NCBI GenBank assembly: GCA_050084515.1
Contig: CM114271.1
Location: forward strand, 18,476,001-18,540,000
Direction: 5' to 3'
DNA length: 64,000 nt
DNA from: Blasia pusilla
Lineage: Eukaryota
This document shows, one piece after another, positions 5,075 to 49,068 of the stretch. A model generated the notes under the pieces. That model saw only the letters and a program-made list of their open reading frames with translations. It was not told the origin of the DNA and did not search any database. How positions within the stretch are numbered: the first letter of the stretch is position 1; every line of letters starts with the position of its first letter. The position numbers and the translations under genes were made by a program.

Positions 5075-5088
5075 ACCCTAACCCTAAA
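5075..5088. promoter_or_regulatory. Telo-box-like motif (ACCCTAACCCTAAA) in the probable PWR promoter / 5' region
   Basis: Motif is visible ~1 kb upstream of the ATG in a GC-rich stretch; function is inferred only. Confidence 0.3.
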
Positions 5089-8432: not shown

Positions 8433-8620
8433 AATCCTATGAATGCACAAACTCGACTCACATCCAAAGGGCGTGGAATGCATGAGATACCCTATACCTT
8501 TGTCTATTGAACATCAAGGCCATCTTGGTGTATCATGTGACCCAATAGCTCATTCTTGTTGTAGAAGAATTCTCATTTTTCTGGATGTAGCTTCATCCTG
8601 TGTATAGCCATTATAGGGAT
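8433..8620 (-). mobile_element. Short inverted RT fragment of the same gypsy family
   Basis: Nucleotide similarity to 25620-25810 (MKL.P.K..F....LGH..; IPRP.DVSRV.AF.G). Confidence 0.65.
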
Positions 8621-23855: not shown

Positions 23856-26620
23856 TTGGTCGATAACAACCTCCTCGAATAGTCACGTACCTCAATGTAT
23901 CCCAATGTTGCGCGATCGCCAAGTTCTCAAACGCCATGGGCATCACTCTCCGAAACAACTCAACCCTATGAGAACATGCTTGCATCTATACATCAGGTTC
24001 AACACCTCACCAACATCTCGACGAATGGTCGGAGGTAAATCCGACTCTCGGCCATAAAGTAGCAAGTATAGTGAGAGAGATGCTAAGGTTGCCTACCTGC
24101 TAAATGTGTATCCCATTGGCAACCCTGGCAATTGGAGGTCCCAATCTCCTAAGTGACTTGTCTCCAAGCCATTCTTGCGTTATCCTCTCTGCATTATCTC
24201 CACAACCCTCTCTGCTAGTCCGTGTGCCTCTGGATGCTCTCGCGAAATGGTGCGGTGGTTGATCAGCGCCTGATCACACAGGGCAAGAAATTGTTTGCGA
24301 AACTCTGTAACTTGGTCTGTCAACACCTCGATTGGTAGGCCATAGTGACTCAACATTCGATCTAGGAAGGCATACGCTACTCCCTCACTCGCTCTGTCAA
24401 GCAATACAACCAACTCTATCTAGTTTGAGAAGTGCTTGACCATCACCAACATATACGGACTATGGCGCTCCGTCAAAGGTAAAGGTCATACAAAATCCAA
24501 ACTCCATGTATATCCTAAATCCATGATCGAAAGTGGATGCAACTATGGAGTCAGAGCATTGAACAATGATTTCACCCGATCACACACCATGCACTTGGCA
24601 ACAAAGTGTTGAACGTGAGTCACCATGCCTCGCCATGAATTTTTTATATAGAGCAAGTTGTACGTCTGCTTCACTCCAAAATGACCCAACTTCTTGTGAG
24701 GATGACGTACCAAAGGTGCTCTCTGCGAAGCATGATGCACTACACAAACTCTACCATCCTCCCAAACTCGAATCACATATGTCTCCTCGCATCGGAAGTG
24801 TCTCGCTGGTTGTAGGATCCGATCCCGCTTTCTAGCATCCATTTTGCCTTACGACGCTGCTAGTACGCATGTACTCCAAGACTACTCCTTTGTTATGGAT
24901 ATCTCGGCCACATGTCGTCTCCTCACCGGCCTCTTGATATAGGGACTCTCCATGAGATCTCACCATGGAAGTCTTAGCAATATGGCTCTCCATAGCCAAC
25001 AAGCCCAAATAGGATGACGCGTGCCATTTTGGCACCAACTCCTCGTCACTCTCACCATGCCAACGAACTCCAATCGCATCTCGCTGACTAGGGCATGGGT
25101 TATGGCTCAAACCATGTGCATCTTGGTTGAGCATCCCACATCTATGTACCACTTGGAAGTCATACTCCTGCAATAAAAGGCTCCAGCTTGCAAGCTTCCT
25201 AGTAAACTTGTTGGACTCTATCAACCACTTAAATGGCTGGTCATCAATTGCTGAATAGATAAGACGTTAAATGCGCGATAGCCCACACTACAACCAAGAA
25301 ATCACCCTCATATGAGCTACATTTTGCCCCTACATCGTTGTTCAGGCGATTAGCGTAAGCCACCACAAACTCTCTACCCTCATTGTCATGATGGGTGAGC
25401 ACGGCTCCAACAGCCAACATGCTCCAATCAGTATGCAATTGGAAAGGACGCCCCCCTGATCAGTCTCCTCAATATGGGCGCAAATATCAATATGTCCTTG
25501 AGCAACTGAATTGCTTTCTCTTGCTCATCCCCAAATGCCACTTGTGATCCACCTTGGTTAGAAAGGTTAGCGACTTTGCAATTGAAGTGAAATCCTTGAC
25601 GTAATGTTGATAGAAGTTCTCCGATCCCATGAATGCACGAACTCGACTCTCATCTGTGGGGCGTGGAATGCATGAAATAGCCTCTACCTCTGTCTGTTAC
25701 ACACCTAGGTCACCCAGGTATATGGTATGACCGAGGTACTCAATCAATTTGTAGAAGAACTTGTACTTGCCTGGTTGTAGCTTCATCCCTAGTAACTACC
25801 ATTGTCGAAATATCTCTTCTAAATGTTGCTCATGCTCCTCAATCGTGGCGCTAAAGACTAGGATGTCATCAATAACAACTTGCAATATCTAGACCTGCCA
25901 AGATCCTATCCATGACCCTTTGAAACTCAGCCAAGGTGTTCTTTAACCCAAACAATAAGAATCGCCACTGGTACAAGCAATCCTTCCTGTGAGGATCGAT
26001 GCCCCAAAATACCGTCTTTTGCCTGTCCTCCAATCTGATAGGCAATTGATGGTACGCGGCTCCAAGATCGAATAAATTGAAGAGCTTTGCATGCCAAATA
26101 GCATCAAAGATCTCCTGAGGGATGGGCATGGCATACCTATCAGACTTTGTCTACCGATTGATAGGTCGATAATCTGCACATATCCGCATATGCGTCCTGT
26201 TGCCATGCACATCCTTCTTTATGACCATGATAGTGGCAGATGCATACTCTCCATGCAACATCTCCACAAGTCTTGCTCCAACCAAGTATTGGTTCCTACT
26301 CTGAATCAGAGGCCTCTCCATGTCACTATACCTGTAGGGTTGTCGGAAGATTGGCGTGTCGCTCAACAACTCAAATGTTGATCCCTTGACCCTTCAGCGT
26401 ACCCAAATCATGCATACGAAATGAAAAACAACTCCTATAGCTCTTAAGGAAGTGATGTATACAACACCGCTCTCCTCCTGTAAACTTTAGGGCCCATATT
26501 AGGCTCCCTAGTCTCCATCGTGACTACGGTAAGACTCTCAGAAGTGGATGTTGGTGGTTGCTTTGGTGCAACCTTGACTCAGACAGCAAAACTCGGTTGC
26601 TTCCCTGCAACCATTGACTG
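23856..26620 (-). mobile_element. Decayed Ty3/gypsy pol (RT-RNaseH-integrase) of the DNMT-carrying family
   Basis: PIFRQPYRYS, RICADYRPIN, DLGAAYHQLPI..KTVFW..FGLKN..AEFQRVMD..CY*DD, HTDWS..VGAVL..VVAYA, KLASWSLLLQEYDFQVVHR, LGHFGVKQTY..CMVCDR, EVLTDQ..HPEAHGLAER. Collinear with 35080-36550. Confidence 0.9.
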
Positions 26621-29600
26621 TCACAAGTTTCCTTGTGTTGAATGGAAGACATTGGTTCTATAAGGCTCAAGTCAACACGGATTGGAAGAGACAAAGATTC
26701 ACCTTCCAAGCACCATACAATACTCCAAAGAAGCTCGTGAAGTTGTCTTGGAAGTCTCGGCCTTCACAAGGTGAGACCCCCGCCACGGATGAGGGGTACA
26801 CTTCGGACCAAGGCTCGGCGGCCGACAGAGAGTCCTCATCTTATGTTTGCTATCTGGAATGTTATGAGATAGATGACAAGTTCTTACACCTAGAACAGAG
26901 TAAGTCCTTCCATGGAGAAGAGCGAGCCGGGCTCACTACATATCAGTTTACTAAGAAGATGGTGCAAGTAAAAGACTACGAAGAAGTCTCTATCAGTGAC
27001 ACCAAGGCTTTGCATCTATCCACACATTTGTCTACTTCTGAACTTTCACAATATAAGACCTTACTTGCAAAGTACCGTGATGTGTTTGCTTACACATTGG
27101 ATGAGATGAAGGGAGTGCCAGCCAGGTATTGGGAACATAGGATTGATCTTAAGCTCGAGGTCGTTCTTGTAAGAATGCGTCTATACAGGCTGAATCCCAA
27201 GAATCATTTAATGGTTAAGGATGAGATTGACCAGCGGCTGGAAGCACGAGTCATGTCTCATGAGCTGAGAAGTGAATGGGTGTCCCCCATTGTCATTGTA
27301 TTGAATTAGTAGTCGGGAAAGATCAAGGTTTGTCAAGACTACCGGAAGGATCAGGGTTTGTCAAGGCCACCATGAAGGATCATCACGTACTGCCATTTAC
27401 TAATACTATTTTGGATAAAGTGGTCGATCGTGAGCGCTTTACCTTTTTGGATGGATATTGAGGTTACAATCAAGTGTCCATTAGAGAGAAGGACCAGGCC
27501 CTGACTACTTCACTACGAATTGGGGCACTTTTGCCTATCGAGTTATACCTTTTGGGATTTGCAACGCACCTTCCACCTTTCAAAGAATAATGATTTCTAT
27601 CTTTTAGGAATACGTACGAAGATTCATAGAGATCTTCTTGGATGACTTTTGTGGCTTTAGTTTTGAAGCCGAGCATTTACAGAAGTTTGAGCTAACCTAA
27701 GCTTGGTGCAGAGAAGTACAATTGTCTTTGCATCCGGAGAAATCTTACATTGTAATGAGGCAAGGTATCTTGTTGGGGCTTCGAGTATCCTTGCGAAGTA
27801 TCGAGGTGGATAAGGCTAAGGTGTAGATAATTCCGGAGTTGGAAGCCCCCATGAGTCTTCATGAGCTAAGGGGATTCCTGGGACATGCGGGGTATTACCG
27901 CAGGTTCATTAAAGATAATACAATAAAGGCAAAGTCTTTGACTACCCTATTGAAGAAGACAACGGAGTGGGAGTGGACTCCAACTTATCAAGCAACATTT
28001 GAGGAATTGAAGCAGGATTATTGACGGCTCCTCTGCTTCACCCTCCTGATTGGACAAAGACGTGCCAAGTGTATCTAGACACGTCTGCGTTTGCAAATGG
28101 AGTGGTACTAAGTCAGTTGGATGAGAAGAAGAAGGACTACCCCATCTACTATGCAAGCCGCCAACTCTTACTTGCAGAAAAAAGTACACTACCACGTAGA
28201 GAGAGGCTTTGGGGATGGTCTTCGCTTGCAAAAACGTTTTGACATTACTTGTTGGGGTACTCATTTTTCTTTCATGTTGACTATTTTGCGCTTCGGGCCT
28301 TAGTTGTCCCAGTGGATTTGTTAGGGAGGATTTCTTGGTGTCGTATTGAGAGGCTTTCTTTGAGTAAGGGTAGGCCTTCTAGCTATGGCAGACGTGGTCG
28401 ATGCAAGCTGAACTCTCTAAGAAGTTACCCTTTTTCAATGCAAAATTATTATGTATACTCTCCATTCTCTCATGACAGGTATCACAAATGGAAGTGCCGA
28501 GGGGATCACTTATTCGTAACATCGGACCTTGAATTTCCTAACTATAAAATCCCTATAAACTACTTTTCGCTTGTACACGAGGAAAATAGCACAACTAGTG
28601 TTAAACCCTACTTGATCAGGCCTATTGACGTCAATGGATCGCTATATAAATCACTATATAAGGTCATACAAAGTGCAATCCCATGTCTTTCCATATGTGA
28701 AGATAGGAAGAATCACCGGAGTTGGAGATTGCATGACCTGGTTCATGAACGCCTCCCCAAAGTGATAAACTAAATAGCGAGTGAACCAGTGCCTATCTAC
28801 AAAGAGTACCCTGACATGATAAGGATTGAGGAAAGGAAATTTGGGCAGAACTCGTGCTCCATCCCTATCCATGCTTGACAGACATTCTCTAATCTCCTCA
28901 AGAATGGGCTTTGGCAGAATTATTCTCCTAAGCGGGTTAATCCACTCTCATTGGGAAAATAACAAGCCAAAATATTCATTATTTTAGTATGACTAAACTC
29001 CTCTAAGGTGACAAGCCTCTCATCTCCACACACACTACATTCTAGAAACCATGAGTCAAGTTACTCTCCCAAGACGGATGATCCACTCTCATTGGAAGAG
29101 CAAGCAATCCAAAAGCCATACATTCAAGAATGACACGAGAGACTAAAGATATGGAATAGAATGTGATGAACCCTTGAAGGTCCCTCCTCTTTATATGCTT
29201 ACAAGAGATCCATAAGAGTATGAAATAGAACTTATCTTATCTTGTGCCACATGGCTTCCTGTCAAGGCTTAGCCAATCACATTTTGACACAAGTAAATTT
29301 CCTCTTATTTCTTCCTAAATATCCTCTTTTACCCATTTGATATTTTCCAAATTACCCTAACTACCCTAGCCACCAACAAAGACTACTTTTGCTTTTCATT
29401 AAAGCACCAACATCACTACTTTACTTTTATAAAGTAATTTTTTATTTATTACCTCTTTTCTTAAAGTTGGGCCCGCATAAAAGAGGCACCATAAAGAGGT
29501 TTAAACATGGGAATTTCCGTTTCCTAAGAAAATTTACTTAATACTAATAAAACTCTATCTAACACTTAATGAGGAAGGATTTTATACACTGGCTGATTTT

Positions 29601-31018
29601 ACTATACGACATCGGTGGATTCTATTGTAATAGGAATTCACATTTGATGTGGTAACAAGAGCGGTAAAGATCCATACCAACACGGATTTGATGTTACGCT
29701 TAAGGACGCCAAAGGTCGACCTCACGAAGACTCTTGAAGATAATTTTTCGGACGAAGATATGTTCCTAATCCATGAGGAGACTCCGCGAAGATACGCTTA
29801 TGAAGATATTTTGCATTGCCTCGTCACTTTTTGATTTCCAGCCCTCATGATAGAAGAAGAACGTGCATTGTTTCTACAGAAGGTAGGGCCTTATGAGCTC
29901 TGCTAGGAGGTGTTATTCAAGGTGGACGCAGACCAAGAATATCGTAGATGCTTAGAGAGGGAGGAAGTTCCTCGAGGGATTGCTGCTATGCATTTAGAGG
30001 ATGCAAGAGAACATTATGCAGTCAAGAATACTGTCAAGAAGATTTTGGATGCGCGCTATTGGTGGCCAACAATGTATGGGGATGTCTGGCTCTTCTTTCA
30101 GAAATGTGATGCTTGTCAAAGAGCAGGAAGGCCAATAGCGACTTCTTGCTGGCCTTTGGTTCCTATTCTTCCTTTAGCTCCTTTTGAGAAACGGGGCATT
30201 GATTTCATGGGACCTATTTCAGCAGCCATTAGGCAGACCCGACGGAAATATATCTCAATTGCTTTCAATTATTGTTCTAAGATGGTGGAAGCAATGGCTA
30301 CTCGCAAAGATGACAATGAGGTAGTGGCCAAGTTTTTATATGAGATGATAACAACCAGATGTGGGTGTCCTTTGGAATTGGTAAGCGGCTGAGGAACCCA
30401 TTTCCTCAACAAAACGGTTGAGGTGCTCACTGACCACTTCCGCATCGAGCGTAGGAAGATTACGCCCAAAGCCAATGGATTGACAGAAAAGTCCAATGGG
30501 TTTATTTTTTCCGGATCTTTAATCGCATGACTGGCACCTATCCCTATGACAAGGATACCAAGATCCCTGCAATACTTCGGGCCTACCGAATTGCGGAAAG
30601 GGTCACTACCAAGTACACACCATTCTACTTGACGTATGGGATTCAACCCCTTATTCCAATTGAATGGGATGTGCCCACCCAACGGATTTTGGAAGAAAGG
30701 AACGAAGAAGAAAACCAAAAAGAGGAACAAAGACTTGGTAGCCGTAGAGGAGACAAGACATCTTGCTCTTAGCCATACAAAGACAGTCCAAGCACAAAGA
30801 AAGAGACTTTATGAAAAGTACCTAAGACCACTGTCGATACGAGAAGGGGATTTGGTACCACTCTATGACAATTAGCGTCTGAAGTTAAACTGGATGGTAC
30901 CTTATAAAGTCTTGGAGATCTTTGAGAATGGTTCCTTACAACTAGCAACTTTGAATGGAGAAGCATTGCCGATGCGAGTGAATGGCATGCATGTCCGAAG
31001 ATATCATATGCCCAACTA
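26620..31018 (+). mobile_element. Decayed Athila/Phygy-like Ty3/gypsy pol (protease end, RT, RNaseH, integrase), interrupted by a solo LTR
   Basis: [126 protein letters not shown]. Many stops and frameshifts. Confidence 0.9.
28339..29611 (-). mobile_element. Solo LTR with 7-bp terminal inverted repeat and 4-bp TSD
   Basis: TGTCGTA...TACGACA, flanked by TTGG (28335-28338) and TCGG (29612-29615). Removing it restores the RNaseH frame GRISRWILL. Orientation is inferred from the PBS next to its relative at ~12520. Confidence 0.85.
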
Positions 31019-33179
31019 AAGGCTGTGGCAGGGGGAATAAGCACGATCGGACCTCTCCGTGCAAGGCGTGTCAAGGACCCATCTTAAAGACTCTGAAGTC
31101 TCCTAAGCAAAGACCCCCGCAGGCGTACAAAGACTCACAAGAGACAAGGCGAGGTTGTCTTGGTCTTTGCCTTCTTTGTCCTTTTCTTCTTCGTCTTCTT
31201 TGTCTTCGTCGAGCGGCTACAAATCATCACATAACAAAGCCAAATACAAACTCTGACCCCATCAATCCAAAGAGGATGACGGCGGTGGCCACAACACAAT
31301 AGGTGGCGACGGCGTTGTCAACCCTCCAATCAATGACTATCCCTCCAAACCGTCAAGTAAGCAATAGTAGAGTCAAAGGAGCAACGGTAGAACCAGATGT
31401 TAACGGTGGATGACGGACTGACCGAGCACGACAGACATAACATGGTTAGGGACAGTGAATGATGCACTCGTATAAAACCGTGTGATGAAAAAGCCATCGG
31501 AAGCACAAAAGAGGGGGACTCAAAGATCAAAACCTGAAGGCCACAAACGGCAATAAGGCACGGACCATGGAGAGACGGGCGGCAACTCAGTGATAGAACA
31601 GGGGACTCACGGGACGGACCGTAATCATCGGCCCGGATCACCTCTATCGGCGCACGCTGTGGAGCCACAAGCTGCTTTATTTGCACCAGGTCAGGGATAG
31701 GGACCGCAGGGTCGAGGGCGACGGCCCTAGGCGTAGGGGTAGGCAAGGAACGCGGCAGGCAGGCGCCGTAGTCCGCGCGGTGGAGGCCGTTGTAGCGACG
31801 CGACTCCAGGGCGGCAGCTAGAGGCACGGCTAGACACGTGGGCACGGTCGGTGGCTACCAAGATGGATAGAGGGCATTGGGAACGGCCATCCGGAAGGCG
31901 AGCGAACAGTAGGCCTGAGATAGGGAAGCTTTGGTAGTCGGAATCCGACAGGACCAGGACTCGGCGGAAGAGCGGTCGCGGCGCGGTACACAGGCTGCGG
32001 AACATTGTAGTTACGACTTCAAATGGTGACGCGGTCTATCAGGGGACGGCTGCACTCGCCTATGAGTGGACGACTGTGATTGTCTTTTGGACAATGGTGG
32101 GAAGGTAGGCAGCGACAACCACGGCCGGATGCGACTGTGGTGAGCGGGCGGAAGCTACGTGGTCCGGATCCGTCGTGAGCTCTCGACAGTGGCTCGTGCG
32201 GAAACGTAACCAGAGCAGACGGCAGACCTGGGAAGGCACCTAGACGAGGGGAAAGACCCGAACGGAGCCTGTGGAAGCCGCCGACTGCCAAAACTGTCAA
32301 AAATTGGCTCTATAGGCTCCGCCACCATAGTATCGAGGAAACCTGTGAGCAGCAATAGCGTTGTGGTCGTGGTGGAGCTGCGGTTGGCCCGGTCCCCCTC
32401 TTTTTTTTCTTGTTGCATTATTGAATCGGCCCCCTCAAATCCGAATTAATTATCTTATTCTCATCCAGACTTGGAGGTTTCCCACATCCACCTTAAATCT
32501 AGGGTCAACACTACTAAATCAACTCTTTCACCATCTTCTACCTCTAAGTGAGAGTTTCACTTGTCTAGTCCACTCAACACAAACAATTTTACTTTTCTAC
32601 TTCTCCAAGGAGGATCTCACCGTAGGAAAATTGAAATTGCTTCCACATATGGTGACTATGGCAGCCTAACAAGAGCTGTCATAACTCCCTGCTCAAACAA
32701 TGAAATTATGCAACGTTTCTTCACTAGCATACAGTGGCGTACACAGCTTCCCGATCTATGAGAGTGTCAAATCAGTTTCTTCATCTAACCTTCCAATAAA
32801 AAACTGACGTGGACTATAGACAGCTCTTCAATCTGCACTCCTATAGAAAATTGGTAGCGCATGCACGCTGATTTCTCCCGACAAAAATGGCAAACCTGTA
32901 TTCACAAGGTACTCCCCTGAGCATCGGCATGGGGCAACCCGCCCCTATACTCAATTTCTTACCAAATTTTGGCAGCGCTTGTGCCTGGCACTCTCCCACA
33001 AGAAAAATCAACAAAGGAATCAACAAAATTGAGCGGCTCTTGCTCCGATGAGGAGTCCCATTGACCGCTGAACGGTGTCGTGCGCATACATATCGCTACA
33101 CAAGATACATTGTTGGTCACATCTACACCACGCAACAACGATCTTCCCCACACACGGATAGATCCACACATGTACAAAA

Positions 33180-34192
33180 ATCAACTCATACATATACAGG
33201 AGATAGTTGTTAGAGTCCACCTAGAGTATGCAACGGATAGTGCTATGGTGTGCACATTTGCGATTACGACACCAGTTGAGTCGTACGATGTGTTGGTGGG
33301 GAGTTTAGTGTTATATCCCCTAGGATTCATCCTTGACTTCTGGGAGGAGACCGTTGCTTATCGGCTAGGGTGGCGGTCAGGTGACGGCCAATAGTCAATT
33401 ACTCGTGCAGTTTGCGAGACGAGGTGGTCGATCACGAGACGAGTGTATGACCACGTTGGTAGCTTTCACAGGTAGTGTTTGCTGGCCACGAGAGTTTTTG
33501 GAGGAGAACGCACATGCGGAGAATGTCCCTGTATCAGATAGTCCCACGGAGAGACATGCCATGGCGGGTGTCTATTCCCATGTTGGCGAGACCTCTTCAC
33601 CATTGTGGGGTACGACTCGAGATCTACAGAGGAGTGCCGACGACCAGGTGAGGCAAGCGTGGAGTCATGCCTTTATCCTCGAGCAGCAAGATTCAGGTGG
33701 CAATCGGGCCCCGGAGTGGAGACGTTGACCCCATTGGATACTGCACCCGTTGTGTGGCAGTGTCCAGAGGAGGGTGTTAGGGTGCTAGATCTCTTCAGAG
33801 GGATTACCACAAGATTGGCTGCGGTATTGCATGCGGGCTTACGGGTGCATTAGTACCTTTATGTGGAGAGAGATGAGACCGAGCGGCGAGTATCATTACG
33901 TCACGTAGGGAGATTGGTCCAGAGGTATCCTGAGTTGTTGTCGGTATCTGCAGTACGCGGATATCAACATACACTACCCGCGGACATCTCTCTAGTGGGG
34001 GCGCACGATCTGGATAGAGTTGGCACCATTCATTTGTTGATTGCTGGATGGCCATGTCAGGGTCATTCATCAGCTGGCCGAGGGTTTGGATTTTAGGATT
34101 CGAGGTCAGGGATGTTTTGGGAGATGCTCCGAGTAGTAAGACACTTGCAAGAGGGTCATACATCTTCTCCGGCGTACATTTTGGAGAACGTG
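33180..34192 (+). pseudogene. Retroelement protease C-terminus followed by C5-cytosine DNA methyltransferase motifs I-VI
   Basis: One frame from 33776: VRVLDLFRGITTRLAAVLHAG (I) ..YVERD (II) ..ADIS (III) ..LLIAGWPCQGHSSAGRG (IV; PCQ at 34052-34060) ..DSRSGMFWEMLRVV (V) ..AYILENV (VI; 34184-34192). Two in-frame TAG stops. Confidence 0.92.
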
Positions 34193-34560
34193 TCAAACCA
34201 AACCCACTCTCCTAATAAGAGGCTTGGGTTACACTCACAAGGCAAGGGACCATAGCTCCGCCGCTTTATGCCAAGGGGTTCAACAAAGAGAGAATGAGCT
34301 CTCAAGCTCTCTCTCTTGGAGGTATACCCCCTTCCCTCTCCCAAGCCCTCTCAACGGTAACCTATGCTTGTAGGTCATCTCCTTGGCTCTTGACCTGTTG
34401 TAGCGGGTCAAGGGTCACTTCCCAAAGTGGAAAGTCAAATATCCCTAATATTGAAACTTACTAGAAATAGTAAGTTTCTATCTATGGCTCCAAATGATCC
34501 GAAACGAAAGGGAAACCTACTCTCTTAGGTTTCCTGGGGCCTCAACTGGTCAGCACGGCA
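34191..34560. repeat. LTR-like dispersed repeat 'X'; other pieces at ~33076-33180, ~39010-39525, ~48055-48670, possibly 63664-63749
   Basis: TGTCAAACCAAACCCACTCTCCTAAT.AGAGG... is shared at 34191, 39082 and 48251. The family appears to end in TGTCGTGCGC (33076) and CGTGACA (39525), like the LTR at 58723-59773. Confidence 0.75.
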
Positions 34561-34569
34561 TACATCTCT

Positions 34570-37500
34570 AGGACGCTAAGAGCATAAAGGCAAAGTGCTT
34601 ATGTGGCCCCATCGTTAGTCGCCTTCCTGTCATCCATATCATAAAAAAAGTCGGAATCGAAACCTACCTAGTATCTCTTCTATGTAAATCTGGGACATAT
34701 CCATCGTCCATGGGGAACCCTAGTGAGAGGTGGCGTTAGACATGCCATATGCCAACCTCTCGAACATCCATCACAGACTAGCATCGTGGCCGCACCACGA
34801 GCAGAACTACACAACATACAACGCAAGCTTGTAGAAACTACTCCGGAGCTCGGATCTACTCTACCATCAATGTTAGGAAGGTGACATGGCGCACAATTAC
34901 GTAAATGGTCCTTCCATACTATATCATCGCGTCCCTCCAAGGAGAGAACAGCAGATGGAAAAATGTCACGCATTCTCAGGATAGTGCGCCTTGAAGTCAC
35001 ATCCAACATCGTCGGTGTTGATTGCTGCAAGTAGACATAATCTCCCTGATGAAATCTCAGGATAGTTGGTCAATAACCACCACCCCGAATAGTCGTATAT
35101 CTCAACGTATCCCGATGGTGCGCAATCGCTAAGTTCTCAAACGCCATGGGCATCACTCTCCAAAACAACTCTGCCCTCTAAGAACATGCTCGCATCCAAA
35201 CGTCTGGGTCATCGAGGTCCAGCACCTCACCAGCATCTCGACAAATGGCCGTAGGTAAATTTGGCTCTCGGCCATAAAGTAGCAAGTACGGTGAAAAAAA
35301 CGCTAAGGATGCCTGCCTGCTGAATCTGTATCCCCAGCGCCAACCACGGCAACATGAGGTCCCAATCTCCTAGGTGATCTCTCTACAAGCCATACTTGCG
35401 TAAACCCCTCTTGATCGTTTGCACTACTCTCTCCGCTAATCCATCCGCCTCGGGATGATCTCGCGAAGTTGTGCGGTGGTCGATCGGCCTGATCAGACAA
35501 GACCGGGAACTTATCACAAAACTCGGTACCTTGGTCTGTCAACACCTCAACCGGTGCGCCATAATGACTCAGCACTCTCTCAATGAAGGCATAAGCTACT
35601 CTTTCACTCGCTCTGTCAGGCAATGCAACCAACTCCATCCACTTCGAGAAGTACTCGACCATCACCAACACATAATGACTGTGATGCTTGGTCAATTGCA
35701 AAGGTCCTGCAAAATCCAAACTCCATCTTTACCCTAAGCCCATGATCAGTAATGGATGCAACTGTGGAGTCGGAGCATTGAACGATGCTCGGACCCGATC
35801 ACACTCCTTGGACTTGGCAAAAAATTGCTGAACGTCACTATGCATGCCTCGCCACCAAATACTAAATCTTGACCAAGATGTACGTCTGCTTCATCCCAAA
35901 AAGATCCAACTCCTTATGGGCATGCTGCACAAGTCGTGCTCTTTGCGGAGGATGTGGCACTACGCGTACTCAACCATCCTCCCAAACCCTCAAAACATGT
36001 GTCCCCTTCCAATGGAACCATCTGGCCCGCTGTAGGATTTGATCCTGCTCTCTAGCATCCACGTTGCTCGCAACGCTGCCAGTACGAAGGTACTCCAAGA
36101 CTACTCCATCATCATGAATATCTCGGCCACCTGTCGTCTCCTCACTCGCCTCAGGATCCAAGGACTCTCCACTAGACCTTGCCATCGAAGTCTCCACACT
36201 CTGGCTCTCCATAGCCTACATGCCTAAACAAGCAGACGCATGCCATCCTTGCACTGACTCCTTATCACTTTCTCCATACCATCGAGCTCGAGTCGCATCT
36301 TGCTGACTCAGGAATGGGTTACCACTCAATCCATCTGCATCCTGATTGAGCGTCCCGGGTCTATGTAACTCCAGAGGAATTGATGTATCCGGCGCCGCTC
36401 TCCTCCTATCAACTTAGGGCCCATATCTAGGTCCCAAGTCTCCATCGTGACTATGGTAGCACTCGCTGGTGCGGGTATCAGTGGTTGCTATGGTGCAACC
36501 CCGTATGGAACAACAACACTCGGCCGCTCTCCTGCAACCAACTGTAAACTCTGATCTCCTCCACGTGTAGTGCCCTTAACCACGCTCGATGCAATGGCTA
36601 TCATCTTCTGGCGTACGTGAAAAACATCCCAAGAAGCCTACGAAAACTCTCATGTGGGCGCCTCTAAAAGTCATGGATGCTGTGCAACTTCTCTATCCGT
36701 GGCCCCTGGTAGCTCGCCCTCAACTCTGCAAAAAACTCAACCACAGGGTTGAACTTGAGACAAACCTGACTAGACGGTGCAACTGTTCCAGTGCGAGTGA
36801 CCCCCCTAAAACATCACTAGTAAAAGAGGAAGTAGCCTCTCGTGACTCCTCCTCCTCATCTGGGAACGGCTCCTTCCATGCCACATAGTGTGGGTCATAG
36901 TAGAGCCTCCACGCCTCGATCTCAAAAATATATCTCTGAGAGAACTCATCGTAATCGTCCATGGGCACTACCTCTAAATGAAGGAACAAATGGTTCCATG
37001 GTGTAAACGGGTTGAACTCTCTAGAGTTCTTGGCCCTCTAGGAGTCGCACCAACTCCTAAACTCTACTATGAAATCATGCAACTCAACCGTGCCAACTGC
37101 ACATGAAAAGCTACGTTGTCCTCTACCTCGGTCGTCCATCTCCTATGCCCAATTGGTAGGACCACTCACAATGTGTGGCGATGTGCTCACAAACTCCTCT
37201 ACACCCTCTCCCTTGTCTGATGATGACACAGAAGGAGGTCGAGGTGGTCCCTCGCGTGGAGACCCTTGAAACCTTGCGCCACTCCTCGTAACACATGTAG
37301 AGTTACTCTCGGTTCACCACCTCGCCTCTCAAAGTCCCGAACAAACCCTGTGATGACCCTCGTACCCCTCTCACCCCATCACTCTCAACCTCGTGAGAAA
37401 TCCCTCAATCTCTCATCCCAAACATGCGGCACTCGATCTACATTCTCCCTCCTCAAGACGTGTAACGTGCGGCAACACGGGGCATGGTGCGGCTAATCAA
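34570..37500 (-). mobile_element. Internally deleted gypsy copy: gag - (deletions) - RNaseH end - integrase - PHD finger
   Basis: Gag LFLHLEVVPMDDYDEF..EIEAWRLYYDPHYV (~36880-37000); integrase DFAGPL..YVLVMVEYFSKWMELVALPD..EVLTDQGTEF (35303-35719); PHD CMLCSSARGAATMLVCDGCSRGWHMACLTPPLTRVPHGRWICP (~34690-34822). Confidence 0.9.
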
Positions 37501-38256
37501 CGAGGCTATCATCTCATCGACAACCTACCCTCAACTCCGGACATCCCACACAGGTCTATGTCCCCTAAACCACATACATGAATGATGCTCTCAGCATCCA
37601 CACAACCCAATATCCTTAAATAAACTACCAAAATCCAAGAATCCCTCACACGTGCAGGGTAAAGGACCAGAATAGGTAACCTGAACACATGTCGATGTCG
37701 CTCCATGGAAATTGCAAATCTCGACCCCAACTTGGTGGTCAAGACAACTCCTCCAATCAGCAAGTTGTACTCCTCTCGTACTGACGCTACTCAACGTCCT
37801 CGATTTGCGATGCAGGTCGAGCGGTCGGGTGCAACACTGGCGGCACGGAACGGCTACAAACAACACGCCACTTGGAAATGGGGTGCGGCACTCGACGGCA
37901 TACCACCCTCTATCAACAATTTAAAAGCTCTACTAAGAGTGCGGTGCGGTGTGGCCACGAGCAGCAATCGGCGGCGTGTTTAGGGTTTAGGGTCACGACA
38001 CGGTACTCGATCGTCGTCGAGCGGCTCCCAATCATAACATAGTAGCATGAAAAAAAAAATCAACCACCATAATCGGAGGTCATCTGCCATCATAGGTTGA
38101 TGATGAAACTGTGATGAAGGTGGCGGCCAAAATAAAGTACGTGGTGGGGACGCAAGTCAGAGAATCAACGAACGTCGTGGAAGACCCTCCACTCCATAAT
38201 TGCAGTAATGGCAACCAAAGAGTGGACAACGAATGGTGGACCGTTGATAGTGCCGC

Positions 38257-38445
38257 TTGACCGTTGGTGGTGATGGCCGACCGGTGACCGTGATGGTTGA
38301 CCATTGACTATGACGGTTGACCGTTGATGGTGATGGCCGACCGGTGACAGTGACGGTTGACCATTGACTATGATGGTTGACCGTTGATGGTGATAGTTGA
38401 CCGTTGATGGCAGACTGTTGACAGTGACTATGACGGTGACGACCG
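38257..38445. repeat. Minisatellite of 20-bp subunits (TTGACCGTTGATGGTGATGG-like) in a 60-bp higher-order unit
   Basis: Lines 38281 and 38341 are near-identical at a 60-bp offset. TTTAGGGTTT motifs lie at ~37979 and ~38465. Confidence 0.85.
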
Positions 38446-39525
38446 CCGACGCCGTGGCGGCAAGTTTAGGGTTTGAACAATTTTACCCTAAAAATCGCCT
38501 AGCAAGGCATTTTTTCAACATTGACCATAATTTTTTTCTCGCAACTCCAAATTGCACACTGTTTGTTGCACAACATTCACAACTTCACAATCATAAAATA
38601 TTTAGAATCAAACATTCCAGTAAAAATAGACGGGGACGGTCGTAAAGCCCATTGTCTCTTTCTCCTACAAAAAATTTGGCTGCACTTCTGCGCTGATTTC
38701 TCCCAACGGAAATGTAAAACCTGTAAAAATATAAATCAACAAGCTCCATGGTGCTCCCGAGAGTGTCGGCATGGGGCAACGTGCCCCCATATTCAATCCC
38801 TATCAGAAACTGGGCAACGCTTCCGCGCGCCACTCTTCCACACGAAAAATCAACATATGCAAAGAACAATCAAAGCAACCCTTGCTCCGATGAGCACTCC
38901 CATGAGCCGCTGAATGGGGAACACGGTCCCGGTGCATGAAAAAATAGTGAGTGACGAATGAGGTCCCCCATGAAGCTCTCTCACTCTCTGATTCTCTCAT
39001 ATTCTCTCTTTGTAAATTAAGATCCAATCTCTCTCTACACGATCTCACACAATAGCTCTCAAATGTGGGCACTCTCTCTCATGTCAAACCAAACCCACTC
39101 TCCTAATGAGAGGATTGGCTTACACTCACAAGGCAAGGGAACATAGCTCCACCGCCTTATGCCAAGAGGTTTAACAAAGAGAGAAGAAGCTCTCAAGCTC
39201 TCTCTCTTGGAGGTATATCCCCTTCCCTCTCCCAAGCCCTCTCAACGGTAACCTATGCTTGTAGGTCATCTCCTTGGCTCCTGGCCTGTTGTAGCGGGTC
39301 AAGGGCCACTTCCTAAAGTGGAAAGTTAACTATCCCCAATATGGAAACTTATTATAAATAGTAAGTTTCTCTATATGGGTCAAAATGAGCCGAAATGAAG
39401 TGGAAACCTGCTCTCTCAAGTTTCTCGGGGCCTTAAAAGGTCATCCTCAACCTCCTAGGCTTGTCCTCCACTACTCGTGTAGACATTCTGCTAGATCCCA
39501 CGGATCTATCCTTACCGTCGTGACA

Positions 39526-40125
39526 ACGGATTTTCAAAGAGTGATGGATAGGATTGTGGCTTGCTTGGATTTTGTACATTGTTACATAGATTATATTCTT
39601 ATCTTCAGTTCCACGGTTGAGGACCATGAGCGACATATGGAGGATTTGTTTGGGCGATTGCAATTACATGGACTGAAGTTACATCCAAGCAAGTGTAGAT
39701 TCTTCCAGGAGCTGATTGAGTACTTGGGACATACCATATACCCGAGTGGGTTAGGCGTTCAATTGACGAAGGTGGAGGCTATTGCGCACATTCCACGCCC
39801 TACAAATGTGAGTCAAGTCCAAGCGTTTCTTGGACTGGAAAACTTCTCTCGATGGTATGTCAAGGGTTTTAGTGTGATTGCAAAGTCTTTGACCTTGTTG
39901 ATGAGACTTCATCATGTTTGGTTGTGAGGAGATGATCAAGAGCGAGCATTTTAGGAGCTCAAGGACAAGTTGACGTCCTCACCCATTTTACACAAACCGG
40001 TTAGGAGTCCCCCATTCCACTTACATACGAATTGGAGCATGTCGGGTCTAGGAGCAGTGCTTACTCAGAGGGATGACGAGGAGAGTGAGTTCGTTGTGGC
40101 TTCCACGAGCCAATCAAACAAGAAA
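39526..40125 (+). mobile_element. RT-RNaseH fragment of the DNMT-carrying gypsy family
   Basis: DFQRVMDRIVACLDFVHCYIDYILIFS..GLKLHPSKCRFFQELIEYLGH..IPRPTNVSQVQAFLGL..PFHLHTNWS..GLGAVL; homologous to 25330-25930. Confidence 0.85.
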
Positions 40126-40231
40126 GATGAGAAAGATGGCTTAGGAAAGCCATCTTCCTCTCTTATGTAGGGTTGAGGAGAGCCAAAAGGCTCTTCCGCT
40201 AAAAATAGCTATCCTCTTGGTAACATGCGCG

Positions 40232-40555
40232 CATCCAACAACGACACATTCTCTAGAATCTATGAGGGAGACAGAGGCTCGTGCTTATGACCATGCAAAT
40301 GATGCAAGATCTACACCTGCTTGCAAGATAACCTAGACTTTTTCAATTCAACTCCTCTTCCTACACTCGATGGACCTCGACGAGGTCAACCTGAAAATCC
40401 GAAATGGATTGTGCCCATCCAATCGAGATCATACGTCCCCAAGACTTTGGTAAGGAACTTTGGTAATCTTGCACTATTGCAATAGGCAATAGATGGGGAA
40501 ATTATTGTGTTAATAGAGAAACATGGCGGAGAGATATTCGGCTCGTAGTTGCATC
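40232..40555 (-). repeat. Near-identical direct duplicate of 42709-43044 (DNMT motif II-VI segment)
   Basis: catccaacaa.gacacattctctagaatctatgagggagacagaggctcgtg... matches with a few substitutions and a 12-bp deletion at ~40443. Confidence 0.9.
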
Positions 40556-42199
40556 ATTCATGTGGACATAGATACAAGACAACATACTCACTTCTGACAC
40601 CTACATCCGTTGATGATCGAGTATAAAAAATCATCCACAATATGAGAGAGATTTTGGCCATGCTTTAAGGGACACCCCAAGGCAATTCGTAGTACATTGC
40701 GATTATGGGGTTCACAACATTATATTTGATGAACAAGGAGCAAGTATCGAGAAATACGATTTTGGACCCTAAAATGAAAGTCGACCACATCACTCTACGC
40801 TGTGCGTATAATCAAGAAAAGATAATGTTTGATGAAGGGACAAATAAAAGGTTACGAATGTCACTCACATAAATAAATATAACTAAGTAAGCATGATTGG
40901 TGTTGGATACTCAATATTATTATTCCAATTTAATGTGAATAATGTTGTATATTAGGAGGCAAATAGATTTGTGGGCTTGACTTTGATGTTGTAGGAGTCG
41001 TAGTAATGTCACGTAGATGGTGTATGGATTAGTGCTTTTAGAGGTATCTAACCTTATCGTGGCATATTGTGCAAGTATCATGATGCAAAATAGCGTCATT
41101 AAACTATCTACAGATAGAGGTGAAGAAAATAGGCCACAAACTCTAATTTGTCAAGAAGCCGAATTGTTGGGAATCAAAGCAATAGCACATTCTCACGTCA
41201 AATTTTCCTCCATGTTTAGGTTCCATTGAAGCTATGTTAGGAGCACAAAAATAGACAAGGTCATTCTCTAGTATTAAGATTTGTTATATATTTTATCGAT
41301 TTGTTCATGTTATATTTTCTCTCATGGCATCAAAGAAAAAACACAAGTTTTTTGAGTAAAAAGTGTTAACATTAATGGCTTTTATGCATATCATCTAGCC
41401 TCATCTCAAGAGTTTTGTAAGAAATATTCTAAATTCCTTTTATTAAAATAGAATTACCATATGAGCCTTTATCTCTAGAAGACTAAAGTCTTTGGACCAA
41501 ATTCACGTCTAACAAATTGAAAGAAGTGTTGATCCATATCATAAGGAATCTGATGGGTCTACATAGTCAATAGAGAATAACCAAGTTATGAGAGCTCCAC
41601 TTTGACAATCAAGACCGTATGCTTAATTAATAGAGCTTGGTTTCTTAGTTTATGGCAACGAGTTGTTATAGCCTTTAGTTTGGAATACAATTTTTTCTCT
41701 TATGAATATGCTTCGCCAATTATTTATTGTTAAGAGGCACCTTTTCCTTCTAGTTAACAAAGGCTTCATTTAAAGGCTTCATTATCAAAGGCTTCATTTT
41801 AAAAAAACAACCATTTTTTATCTAGTAATCTTGTCTGTTTCCAAAGATGCTTGAGAGATTACTCATTCTACTTAAATTCCTACTTGTCCTCCTCTTCAAG
41901 GTGGAAGGAAGTTACATGGGTCTAACTATATAGACATTCTAAAAGTTCACAATGAGAATTTTCCTTCAATCATCTGAGACAAAGGAGGAAACCGTTCAAA
42001 TGGATTCATATCCATGTGCATGTGCATTATTTCACAACATCTCCAAGGATGTCTATAGAGATCATCTCATGTCTATGGGTATTCTCTTACCTCACTCCCA
42101 CCAACGCATATATCCTACTGATACACTTGGGGCTTTCTAAGAATTCAAAGGTCAGACGCCTCAATCACATTCGACGTTGTTCGACCACTCATAAGTTGA

Positions 42200-43200
42200 T
42201 AGTCCATGTAACACAATTCATATGCAGATCCATAGCCCAATCAAGCATCTGGAGTTAGGATGCTTTTTTCAATTAAGGTATAATTTGTATTCCTCTAGGG
42301 AATCCCATTGCATGATTGCTCACTTAGGTTGGGCTTCATTGATGGTAATGCTTGATCATCCAAATTAAGCTTGGATTGGCATCCTTATAAGGTAAGAAGG
42401 TTGAAAACTTGGTAATGTGGAAAGTGCTAGAATGGGCATGCCCACTCTATTCCCCACACTTAGTCCGGGTTGATCACCATGTCTAATTGTGTGTAATCAT
42501 AGCCCATGATCCAAGATTGAATCCACCAACAAACAAGGGGGTCGCTGCACTTCAACATAGGCCCTCTTCAAAACCTCATGCGTCATCAATTTTTCCCACC
42601 AAAGTCGTGGGTAATGCACAAAAATCCAACACTTGCCGCAAGCAAGAAAAAACTAATCCAATGCATCCATAAACCTTATATAGGTTTGTCACTACCCATA
42701 ATCAAGAGTCATCCAACAATGACACATTCTCTAGAATCTATGAGGGAGACAGAGGCTCGTGCTTATGACCATGCAAATGATGCAAGATCTACACCTGCTC
42801 GCAAGATAACCTATACTTTTTCAATTCAACTCCTCTTCCTACACTCGATGGACCTCGACAAGGTCAACCTGAAAATCCGAAATGGATTGTGCCCATCCAA
42901 TCGAGATCATACGTCCCCAAGAATAAAACGTCCTTTGGTAAGGAACTTTGGTAATCTTGCACTATTGCAGTAGGCAATAGATGGGGAAATTATTGTATTA
43001 ATAGAGAAACATGGCGGAGAGACATTCGGCTCATAGTTGCATCACATTTTGAATATATGTACTTTTGCACATAAATATTTTTTCCCAACACAATAGCCAA
43101 ACGAGTACTAATCTCTCCAAAGAGATCGAGTATCCACATACCCTCCTTGAAGGATTGCTATACAATGAGGATGGTATCCAAGGAAATTAATGTAGAAATT
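42200..43200 (-). pseudogene. Decayed C5-cytosine DNMT domain spanning motifs I to X (gypsy-borne)
   Basis: Not in the ORF track. Manual translation: EGMWILDLFGEISTRLAIVLG (I) ..LPKDVLFLGTYDLD..SG*PCRGPSSVGRG (IV) ..ILENV (VI, ~42723-42738) ..VHYPRLWWEKL (VIII, ~42587-42619) ..AMGFPRG (IX, ~42291-42311) ..QMLDWAMDL (X, ~42225-42251). Collinear with 33720-34192. Confidence 0.8.
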
Positions 43201-44429
43201 CGTACCACCTCATGCCTCTTTGACTTATCTCAACTTGACCCTAAACCTCTCTCTAGGTCTTCTATACGTTGTTATGAAGTAAAGTGATTTAACATGAACA
43301 TCTTACTGATTGTGTGAGAGAGTATTTTTATAAGTGTAGAGTGACTACTTTGGGAAAATAAATTTTGAAGAAGACTCGACCTCAATTTGACCATTGTATC
43401 TGAAAGGATTCCACCCACACCGTCGTTATCTTTCAATGGAAGGCTCATCAACCGTTTTGCCTTCATAATGAAGGAAATGCGTACCAACTGCCCAAATGAT
43501 AGATCGAGTCGCGCTTATTCACTACCAACTAACTAAGTCCTTGGGGGAAATATCTCTTGCTTAATTATGGAGTAATTCTCAGCGTGATCGCCCCACTTGA
43601 AAGGATTTCCACCCAAACCGTCATCACCTTCAAACTCAAGAGTCACCAACCTTTTTGCAGTCAAGCTGAAGGGAATGCGCACCAACCGCAAAATAATAAG
43701 GGGGGACTTCGCGTTGATTCACCACCAATCAGCTAATTACTAGGAGGGAGAAGAGATCTCACTAAATTGTGGAAAATGAGAAATGAAAGGCATCGGAGCT
43801 TATCCTTATATAGTTTCGGAGACGTTGGATCTCGATCGTTGGGGTGATGGTGACGGAGGACTATTGGGGCGACATCCATTTTTGAGCATTGGAGTGATAG
43901 AGACGGTGGATTTCTATGGCATTAAGGGTTTAAACGTCCAACAGGTTGCACTTAGCCAAGGAGGTTGTACGCCACACGCCTTTTCAAGAGATAAATGCAA
44001 CCTCTTGGATTCTGAGAGGTTCAATGACCCTTTCATTATGTGATAAAGATGAATGGGAATTCCCATTCATCTTTCTCACATATGTTGGAGACTTCCAACT
44101 TCAGACCAACTGCAACTTTTCTGAATCCGACGGGTTGACAAACATGACCCCTTACAACCCATTGGAGTCAGACGGGTTTCATTTCCAATTTGACTCACTT
44201 TCATCCCAACCATAAAAAGCAACTCCATAGCAATCTGTTGAACTGGGACTGGTTGCTTATCCATTCATCTGATGTAGAAATATTCGTGATTGCTTGGTCG
44301 AGTTGGGAGGTGATATTTCAACTTAACTACCAACAATGTGTCAAAAACCTTTTGTTAGAAAATAAACAGACACTATTCACTATCAATTCAACATTGTCAT
44401 TTCAATTCCCATTCTTTCTAGATTAATCA

Positions 44430-47400: not shown

Positions 47401-48050
47401 AGCATGCAACAATTTCCTCAATAAGAATTGTACAAGGGTAAGTGGACCAGCATGAGGCTTCTAGGGTTCGAAAACCTTTGATTGGTTTACAAGGAGAGGG
47501 GATTAATGGAAGCACTTCTTTAGCCCAAATGAATCATGTGCATTTAGAATGTCGTATCCATTTGCCATTGAAGCTTGGGCAAATATCCCTATGACTAGGC
47601 CCATTGGTTTAGGAACCAATTGCACTAAGGAGAAAGTTGACAATCTTACAAGTGCAGGGTTGAGATTGGTAGACGGAGGAGTTTGGAACATATTCACATT
47701 ATTGAGACATTTGCATTTTGGATCCAACCTACGATAAGTGTCCTTTTTATCGAGAGAAGGTGGATGATCTCAATCCACTATTTTCGTACGAGTCAATAAA
47801 TGGAATGAAGAGAAACATAATGAGCAAGCCATTAGTTGAGAGGACAAAGCGAATACCATCGGCTTGTGAGGCCAATATGGAAATCATTGCCATAGTGGGA
47901 ATGGAAAAGGAAGAATATATTGGGTTAAGAAAAATGATGTGAATATTAGTGTTTATGGGGTATGTTGCACATATATATTTCTTTCCACATGTTTATGCGA
48001 TGGCTTTGTCCAGATAGAAACAATTGGGAAAAGGTATTTTCCCTGTAAGT
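44430..48050 (+). pseudogene. Older copy of the Mutator-like transposase gene (DDE + SWIM), truncated by LTR X
   Basis: Collinear with 49069-53020: GPWIVS..LQCRSPSCPFLERN, CPHCHAFPFC..IHVGSHTHHV, SFDICYWILNGW..GAHVYHH, FMAELAQP, RERSDASHWQ, intron donor GTGAGT at ~46472 followed by palindromic repeats, KGPSIYKLYVRAAMR, TCLCDGFVQIETIGKRYFPCK. Confidence 0.8.
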
Positions 48051-49068
48051 ACTCTTATGCGCATACACATCGCTACACAACATACATCATTTTTGCCAAA
48101 CATACACACAACTACACACGATCCCATGTCGACTCATGGCATCCAAACAACGAGACAATAAGTACCAAAATATCTCCAATCTCATTGTAAATCAAGTAGA
48201 TGCAATCTCTCTCAACACCAAAGCTCTCAAATGTGTGCACTTTCTCTCAATGTCAAACCAAACCCACTCTCCTAATGAGAGGCTTGGGTTACACTCACAA
48301 GACAAGGAACCATAGCTCCGCCGCCTCATGCGAAGAGGTTCAAAAAAGAGAGAATGAAATCTCAAGCTCTCTCTTTGAGGTATACCCCTTTCTCACTCCC
48401 AAGCTCTCTACTTGCTAACCTATGCTCGCAGGTCACCTCCTTGGCTATTGACCTCCTGTAGCGGGTCAAGGGCCACTTTCCAAAGTGGGGATTCAACTCT
48501 ATCAAATATGAGAACTTACCAAAAATAATAATTTTCTAAGTATGGCTCCAAATGAGCCAAAACGAAGGGAAAACATGCTCTCTCAGGTTTCCTAAGACCT
48601 TAGCAGGTCATCCTGGACCTCTTGAGCCTGTCCTCCTCTAGTCGCGAAGGCGCTCTACCGAATCTCTGAGGTGCGGTAAGAGGAGAGGAAGAGAGGAAGA
48701 GAGGAGAGAGGAAACTACCTTCAACCGAAATAGATACTTTTTTTTAAAGAGAGTTTCCGTTGGGTTGAAAAAGGAAACTTGTTGTGTGAATTTTTTGGAC
48801 TTTTTTGCTTAGTTATTAAGCAGTCCCACAATTTTTTTCCTCTTCCATATTTTGGCAACCCCTCTAAGTCCGACGAGTCCGACGAGTTGTAAATTGCACA
48901 AAATTTAGAAAACTGAGAAATCAGTGGAATCATATGTGTGGAACCAATCACTTTTTCCATCCAAGGTCTAGAAAAAATCTATCATTTGCCCTAGGTTGAA
49001 AAGAGTTCGAGCTCAAAGTGAAGGTTATGGAAAAATGAAAGTACAATCTAAAACCTCATTTTGCATCC

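Follow-up and report, generated by a model that had tools for sequence, protein, structure and literature searches.

The window analyzed here, 64,000 nucleotides of the Blasia pusilla contig CM114271.1 (assembly GCA_050084515.1, positions 18,476,001 to 18,540,000 of the forward strand), very probably contains dead, rearranged copies of one lineage of Ty3/gypsy retrotransposons that carries a DNMT3-like C5-cytosine DNA methyltransferase (DNMT) and a PHD finger. Separate pieces of such elements had been combined, in an earlier sequence-only reading of the window, into the composite order gag, protease (PR), DNMT, reverse transcriptase (RT), RNase H (RH), integrase (INT), and PHD. This composite does exist as a single element in relatives, where DNMT, RT/RH, INT, and PHD are colinear on one strand in 29 of 80 metagenome loci and where the locus L001 is intact. 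As judged by protein similarity, the lineage is found in liverworts (Marchantia and Calypogeia), with its INT-PHD part also found in a moss and in Klebsormidium. In the genome, the family amounts to several hundred copy-equivalents; it is a bryophyte-type, high-copy, transcribed land-plant representative of the already known Gypsy-DNMT3 kind. Two of its anatomical features, the PHD finger on the integrase and the stop codon that groups DNMT with Gag and protease, do not appear in the available text of the paper that defined this kind of element (de Mendoza et al. 2018, PMC5890265).

Architecture of related elements

Proteins related to the window copies were collected from a library of 1.84 billion representative proteins with the read-through translation of the PR-DNMT piece as the query, which produced 1086 matches at E<=1e-3 (proteins are denoted below by P numbers and metagenome loci by L numbers). 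The metagenome proteins P0160 and P0156 contain a CCHC zinc knuckle, PR, DNMT, RT, RH, and INT in one chain. These two proteins and L001 show DNMT inserted after the protease within a Ty3/gypsy order of pol domains, with which the window relics are consistent. Among the 31 matches listed by a word-indexed search with the PR-DNMT piece, 15 were models from Marchantia polymorpha and 1 came from Calypogeia fissa, the best liverwort identity among these matches being up to 47% over 88% of the query. The Marchantia proteins P0172 and P0176 join DNMT to RT-RH, contrary to the outcome that the sequence-only reading had named as speaking against it, namely, that DNMT never occurs with RT or integrase. 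In another Marchantia protein, P0164, DNMT is joined to an RNase H end recognized by Pfam, and the last 36 residues are 69-75% identical to the window integrase region. The INT-PHD piece of the window matched proteins from Marchantia (P0193, 71% identity), Calypogeia (P0195, 69%), Sphagnum fallax (61%), and Klebsormidium nitens (50%), as well as many RT-RH-INT-PHD proteins of ~1040-1170 residues. DNMT-bearing proteins are also encoded in Closterium. A profile search based on a protein alignment returned 46 proteins, crowded by one subgroup, with no Klebsormidium protein among them; cluster look-ups likewise gave no DNMT-bearing protein from Klebsormidium, the named members being those from Scenedesmus and Closterium.

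Metagenome loci were obtained by scanning JGI contigs with an alignment of gag-PR-DNMT proteins, which yielded 437 confirmed relatives, with 80 loci kept. In 63 of these loci, RT lies on the same strand at most 800 bp behind DNMT, and the contig ends too early to judge the presence of RT in 13 more. The remaining 4 have room for RT but no RT by this rule; one of them is an internal deletion, and in another the RT match abuts the DNMT match. Of the 29 loci with the colinear DNMT, RT/RH, INT, and PHD, 8 also contain recognizable gag and protease. In the intact locus L001, open reading frame (ORF) 1 of 1369 codons encodes gag-PR-DNMT and is separated by one TAG codon from the same-frame ORF2 of 1047 codons, which encodes RT-RH-INT-PHD; L001 ORF2/P0276 had no chromodomain match at E<=0.01. 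The PR-DNMT and INT-PHD pieces of the window both find their best matches in one and the same subgroup of loci (e.g., L007, L012, L014, L036, and L057), and this subgroup also has the highest similarity to Marchantia and to the INT-PHD protein of Sphagnum.

Conserved stop codon and repeat layout

An in-frame stop separates DNMT from RT in all 27 junctions that were found (TAG in 20 and TAA in 7), and the codon that follows it is in every case CAA or CAG. In L001, this stop is at 5083-5085, and both window relics that keep the pre-RT stretch have a stop at the same position (~36400 and ~26480, minus strand). The loci L017 and L032, which belong to a third, more distant subgroup, have a single open frame across DNMT and RT. 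In plant viruses, a stop followed by CAA or CAG is a context that favors readthrough.

Four loci (L017, L032, L036, and L037) have an A...B-A-B arrangement of repeats, with one A at the 5' end and B, A, and B at the 3' end; in L036, the repeats are located at 8139-8475 and 16773-17342. This layout was not observed in the window, in which the 3' copy of A borders on the broken DNMT that belongs to a different relic. The two TG...CA repeats of the window, 34191-34552 and 39082-39443, are 90% alike and have different 5-bp flanks.

The methyltransferase and the PHD finger

Among proteins of solved structure, the natural DNMT of L001 has its best relatives in DNMT3A, DNMT3C, and DNMT3B (E ~1e-7), ahead of the bacterial M.HaeIII and M.HhaI. 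The plant DRM structure 4onj gave a weak match (E 4.5e-3), aligned to the late part of the DRM chain. The circularly permuted order of DRM, in which motifs VI-X precede I-V, is not found here: motifs I, IV, and VI follow one another in this order in the window copy at 33713-34190, and motifs I-X of the relatives are in the non-permuted order as well. A complete open DNMT with the catalytic Cys, ENV, and the C-terminal motifs is present in L001 and in none of the window copies.

An origin of the DNMT as a captured host fragment, or its persistence as a catalytically dead fold with no enzymatic role, appears highly unlikely. Such an explanation would agree with the breakage of every window copy and with the modest Pfam scores of the DNMT domains. 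However, an alignment of 12 sequences shows the catalytic PC, ENV, and the glycines of motif I to be either invariant or conserved at 90% or more, and the ratio of nonsynonymous to synonymous substitution rates (dN/dS) is 0.10-0.15 in the 3 usable pairs of 10, drawn from 5 of the 80 loci. Conservation of the architecture also extends to liverworts, to Closterium and Scenedesmus, and to hundreds of metagenome contigs, and de novo CG methylation by retrotransposon DNMTs has been reported, credited to SymbioDIRS-Dnmt3 in the available text of PMC5890265.

The nearest solved relatives of the PHD finger are the fingers of CHD4, PHF12, PHF21A, KDM5, and UHRF1. Several fingers of this group read histone H3 that is unmethylated at K4. 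The DNMT and the PHD finger are inferred to function as a methylation writer and a chromatin reader, respectively.

Relics of the lineage in the window

The relics that could be assigned to the lineage are listed in Table 1. Its copies in the window diverge by 22-28% from each other in a self-BLAST comparison. The association of protease with DNMT and its PCQ and ENV motifs, described in the sequence-only reading at 33180-34192, holds up on the plus strand, and the relic at 33176-34190 is a dead copy. Its DNMT part (33713-34190) has two in-frame TAG stops and is cut directly after ENV, with the LTR-like (long terminal repeat) repeat A starting at 34191; on an 80-residue piece of this DNMT, the Pfam DNA_methylase match had an E value of 0.0045, below the curated cut-off. 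According to tblastn, the linker at 33393-33700 is in a frame different from those of both neighboring parts, and an additional G follows position 33392 in 396 of the 420 genomic reads. A single open frame running from protease to DNMT was therefore rejected: the linker is frame-shifted, and 3 of the 5 stops of the read-through translation (P0001) fall in the wrongly framed part. Depletion of CG and CHG sites was considered as a footprint of methylation and set aside; the values (CpG observed/expected 0.67, CAG 0.65, CTG 0.72) are compatible with it but not strong enough to be used as evidence. Immediately upstream of the relic, at 32838-33075, there is a leader-like fragment that comes from another copy and is 69.5% identical to 38662-38917.

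Table 1. Relics of the retrotransposon lineage in the window (window coordinates; proteins by P number)
Feature	Coordinates	Strand	Basis or similarity
Gag	6419-7034	+	tblastn
Protease	7318-8072	+	tblastn
RT-RNase H-integrase relic	24099-26520	-	Pre-RT linker extends to 26613
Protease, C-terminal part	33176-33391	+	tblastn with Marchantia P0172 residues 191-261 (44%) and P0163 from residue 685
Protease-DNMT linker	33393-33700	+	P0172 residues 264-356, frame shifted by one
DNMT3-like C5-cytosine methyltransferase, N-terminal half	33713-34190	+	69% identity (110/160 residues) to Marchantia polymorpha P0163
DNMT motif I	33785-33811	+	Read-through translation
DNMT motif IV, PCQ (catalytic Pro-Cys)	34046-34069	+	
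DNMT motif VI, ENV	34175-34189	+	
LTR-like repeat A, 362 bp, TG...CA ends	34191-34552	.	Self-BLAST, alignment
PHD finger, integrase C-terminal end	34689-34820	-	Pfam PHD E 4.7e-11 on ORF 34680-35069; stop codon 34680-34682
RNase H end, integrase zinc finger, integrase core, integrase C-terminal region, with frameshifts	35066-36367	-	Pfam rve 1.9e-11, tblastn
Pre-RT linker (DNMT-RT interval in intact relatives)	36375-36636	-	36375-36540 78% to 26447-26613
Gag relic	36640-37329	-	P0163 residues 9-93 49% (37124-36640 region), residues 115-172 41%
Long leader	37330-39081	-	Self-BLAST, translation
Repeat A, second copy, possibly 5' LTR of the minus-strand element	39082-39443	.	90% identical to 34191-34552
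RT C-terminal half and RNase H start	39526-40127	+	Pfam RVT_1 7.8e-13, RT_RNaseH_2 6.9e-15
Duplicated piece of second DNMT relic	40448-40573	-	tblastn
Second DNMT relic, motifs I-X, heavily decayed	42168-43208	-	tblastn with P0163, P0164, P0171
Repeat A, further copy	48251-48593	.	85% to 34191-34552
Third PHD end and 3' untranslated relic, running off the window	63748-64000	-	76% to 34559-34818; tblastn P0088, P0203

The run from gag to INT-PHD that had been proposed for 34570-37500 is likewise borne out, although it is encoded on the minus strand, in an element (34553-39081) from which protease, DNMT, RT, and most of RNase H have been deleted. The last zinc-binding Cys of its PHD finger is replaced by F. 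The segment from the RNase H end through the integrase is 78% identical in DNA sequence to 23856-25148 (self-BLAST), and the gag part is 72% identical to that at 6212-6524. The pre-RT linker is bounded by deletion joints at 36366 and 36636, exactly where genomic reads of other copies break away (1069 and 899 reads, respectively). The long leader of this element includes ~60-bp tandem repeats at 38233-38440. The RNA reads contain a joint, 34328-34555, that skips 226 bases; each of the three RNA runs shows it (4, 8, and 10 reads), whereas DNA reads do not. There are four other letters between its sides, and neither strand has GT..AG at its ends.

The RT-RH fragment at 39526-40127 is on the same strand as the PR-DNMT relic, is colinear with it, and is 61% identical to residues 622-823 of Marchantia P0176. 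In the numbering of P0172, the plus-strand DNMT ends at residue 520 and the match resumes at residue 825, which leaves ~300 residues absent between the two. The 34191-39443 block that lies between them is flanked by gaacg on one side and tcctc on the other, with no matching target-site duplication. For these two reasons, the plus-strand fragments at 33176-34190 and 39526-40127 need not be parts of one element, although a common origin is possible. For the same reasons, a simple nested insertion of 34191-39443 into one plus-strand element was rejected; the arrangement could be accounted for by two insertions that then recombined with each other. Some 50-60 bases of flank on both sides are common to two of the three copies of repeat A (39444-39500/48594-48644 and 39020-39081/48190-48250), so either the repeated unit is longer than A or the rearranged derivative has itself been copied. 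Some genomic reads connect 39476 or 39525 to 33076, and genomic reads break at 40127, the start of another high-copy segment (40127-40420).

Other places in the window also contain parts of the lineage. The claim of a shared pre-RT linker, RT-RNase H, and integrase at 23856-26620 proved correct, on the minus strand. The RT of this relic is 52-67% identical to those of the DNMT-bearing Marchantia proteins P0172, P0176, and P0171, whereas the other Gypsy RT of the window (27530-28012) is just 31-33% identical to them. The claim of gag, protease, and DNMT at 6060-8432 stands for gag and protease only: what follows them on the plus strand in 6419-8432 is a linker and then, by eye in the six-frame translation, at most a degenerate DNMT start near motif I, broken at 8432, and there is no tblastn match to DNMT in this interval. 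After the break, an RT fragment lies on the opposite strand at 8426-8689. The second DNMT relic (43208-42168) has many stops and shifts, no adjoining protease or RT, and an approximately single-copy read depth. A part of it is included in a duplication in which 40232-40556 is 94.6% identical to 42710-43044; this duplication arose much later than the relics it copied.

Copy number and transcription

A sample of about 1 in 100 from a whole-genome run that bears the same species label was mapped on positions 32000-44000 at >=85% likeness. The DNA depth was ~900-fold for PR-DNMT, ~1840-fold for INT-PHD, and ~1190-fold for RT, against ~1.4-fold in the flanking bins, and it was the highest of the stretch in repeat A at 34191-34552 (~2150-fold in its bin); these depths are rough, as over half of the reads matched only partially. 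By likeness to the window, the 80,596 mapped reads were distributed as 242 at >=99%, 2394 at 95-99%, 27,597 at 90-95%, and 50,363 below 90%. The PR-DNMT depth agrees with the earlier statement that the lineage had been amplified in this plant and disagrees with a one-off capture of a DNMT fragment, which had been set beforehand as the outcome that would tell against that reading.

In three RNA runs chosen by species label, the depth was ~90-140 for INT-PHD, ~27-33 for RT, and ~3-7 for PR-DNMT. It was strongly asymmetric between the strands, and the favored direction flipped with the orientation of each relic.

Several observations weigh against interpreting the window as the remains of one transcribed lineage with both domains. 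As the sequence-only reading had correctly stated, no window copy joins DNMT to RT, and none joins DNMT to PHD in one piece. Relative to INT-PHD, the DNMT depth is half in DNA and about twenty times lower in RNA, so that many copies, and most of the window-like transcripts, may lack DNMT, like the deletion derivative of the window. Only under the usual convention for stranded libraries would the RNA represent sense transcripts. Most relatives are decayed, with an uninterrupted DNMT in just 5 of the 80 loci by a strict test; just 3 pairs were usable for the DNMT dN/dS; and the family enzyme is classified as DNMT3-like from matches to solved structures and from motif order.

Some of these observations could also be accommodated by two Gypsy families living side by side, one with DNMT and without PHD and the other with PHD and without DNMT, in which case the composite would be an artefact of stitching. 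The absence of a window copy with both domains and the difference between the DNMT and PHD parts in both DNA and RNA depth would fit such a pair of families, as would the many database RT-RH-INT-PHD proteins with no DNMT in their Pfam list and the proteins P0160 and P0156, which have DNMT and no Pfam match to PHD. However, the RT-RH-INT-PHD proteins are equivalents of ORF2, whose start lies immediately behind the conserved stop, so the absence of DNMT from them is expected. Further, both domains are found in order and on one strand in the 29 colinear loci, both window pieces have their best matches in the same locus group, and the gag of the PHD-containing window element matches (tblastn) the gag of the DNMT-bearing Marchantia protein P0163. 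Two separate families are thus quite an unlikely source of these relics, and a single lineage with both domains is the preferred interpretation.

Comparison with known elements

The statements on published work in this section refer to the available text of each paper. Retrotransposons with DNMT in Symbiodinium dinoflagellates and in a charophyte alga, mentioned in the sequence-only reading, are indeed those of de Mendoza et al. 2018 (PMC5890265), who described DNMT3-type domains with conserved catalytic residues and Ka/Ks <0.2 in a Gypsy element of Klebsormidium nitens. This element, KnitGypsy-Dnmt3, has an A-coding-B-A-B layout and is present in few copies in Klebsormidium. The lineage described here resembles it in having a non-rearranged DNMT3-type domain inside a Gypsy LTR polyprotein, in the A-coding-B-A-B layout (here in four relatives), and in purifying selection on DNMT (dN/dS as given above versus the published Ka/Ks). 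Between ORF2 of the DNMT-bearing loci and two INT-PHD proteins of Klebsormidium, P0211 and P0244, the identity is 47-53%. In contrast to KnitGypsy-Dnmt3, the host is apparently a bryophyte, the closest named relatives are from liverworts ("Marchantia" occurs 0 times in that text), the copy number is high, and the elements have a PHD finger and a DNMT-RT stop, neither of which is mentioned in that text ("PHD" occurs 0 times).

The Symbiodinium elements SymbioDIRS-Dnmt3 and SymbioLINE-Dnmt similarly have a cytosine methyltransferase in a retrotransposon coding region, but they are a DIRS element with a tyrosine recombinase and a LINE, respectively, and represent independent acquisitions (PMC5890265). 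Self-methylation of the cDNA has been proposed for retrotransposon DNMTs, and the tested SymbioLINE-Dnmt did not methylate DNA in yeast (PMC5890265). Fusion of a chromatin reader to the C-terminal end of the integrase is shared with the chromoviruses (Neumann et al. 2019, PMC6317226), except that the reader is here a PHD finger and that P0276 has no match at E<=0.01 to the chromodomain that defines chromoviruses. The available text of the same paper, the REXdb survey of plant LTR elements, contains 0 occurrences each of "PHD" and "methyltransferase". The EpiLTRs, or DAM-carrying retrotransposons, also are LTR elements that pair a DNA methyltransferase with a chromatin reader; in contrast to the present lineage, they combine an adenine methyltransferase with a chromodomain and with a DNMT whose sister group is DNMT4, and they come from Cymbomonas and Euglena (bioRxiv 10.64898/2026.05.21.726589). 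That preprint lists "streptophytes (Gypsy-DNMT3)" as a known case, and a 2025 paper cites de Mendoza et al. for streptophytes. PHD fingers are a common accessory domain of Chlamydomonas transposons (PMC8557442).

Polyproteins from green algae and metagenomes, such as the "pol" protein P0088 of Scenedesmus sp. PABB004, P0027, and P0256, combine a related DNMT (33-42% identity) with INT-PHD in one Gypsy polyprotein. Their order is RT-RH-DNMT-INT-PHD, with DNMT between RNase H and integrase and not between protease and RT. P0256, which its source labels as a protein of a bacterial metagenome-assembled genome, looks like the product of a mis-binned eukaryotic contig and has a weak Tudor-like match; P0238, another protein of the RT-RH-DNMT-INT-PHD group, shows, at the C-terminal end, a weak match (E 0.0028) to a D12 N6-adenine methyltransferase.

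A literature search found no land-plant report of such elements, although papers outside this search or the supplements of de Mendoza et al. may hold one. The earlier assignment of the window to a land plant is supported only indirectly, by the nearest named relatives being from Marchantia polymorpha, Calypogeia fissa, and Sphagnum fallax; no obvious host gene was found in the 64-kb window. A recent horizontal transfer into this plant, with no vertical persistence in land plants, is improbable, even though identity to Marchantia, Calypogeia, and environmental contigs is much alike (~45-70%) and forms no clear host-like pattern. Related elements are present in two liverworts, and the INT-PHD part is also present in a moss and a charophyte. 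The divergence of the window copies points in the same direction, as it indicates that several old sublineages coexist.

Possible mechanism and significance

Cytosine methylation is the main route by which plants silence transposons, so a transposon with its own de novo methyltransferase presents a paradox. To our knowledge, such elements have so far been documented only in dinoflagellates and one charophyte alga. The present results extend this kind of element to land plants, among them the genetic model Marchantia polymorpha, and show several hundred copy-equivalents and transcription in one genome. The placement of the methyltransferase upstream of a conserved stop, together with Gag and protease, and of the PHD finger on the integrase leads to testable ideas on the timing of the enzyme and on the landing site of the element.

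In an intact element, the stop between DNMT and RT would probably be read through at a low rate, which would provide Gag, protease, and methyltransferase in excess over RT and integrase. The PHD finger of the integrase might tether integration to histone H3 tails, probably those unmethylated at K4, similarly to the chromodomains of chromoviruses; this analogy is offered tentatively, as somewhat less than an even chance. Slightly more doubtful is the suggestion that the methyltransferase could act on the element's own new DNA copy or on its insertion site, along the lines proposed by de Mendoza et al. None of this would be possible for the copies in the window, as they are truncated, frame-shifted, and stop-bearing. 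The widest interpretation, that a Gypsy lineage with a DNMT3 writer and a PHD reader has persisted from charophytes to bryophytes and is transcribed from hundreds of copies, with an enzyme that may also methylate the host genome, is speculative and rather unlikely. If it were true, a part of de novo methylation in such plants would come from a transposon-encoded enzyme. Given the annotated relatives in the model liverwort Marchantia polymorpha, methylation of the host by the enzyme would be genetically testable.

Other elements of the window

The window is crowded with the remains of transposable elements, and Rfam gave 0 matches over its entire length. A second, unrelated Gypsy element with RT and integrase is found at 26578-30661 on the plus strand. 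The same strand contains a 401-codon open frame (21871-23076) that by eye resembles a LINE endonuclease and an unexplained open frame of 511 codons (56490-58025). A long inverted repeat occupies 45453-52060 and includes an ORF at 49069-49740 (minus strand) with what, by eye, is a SWIM-like Cys/His motif.

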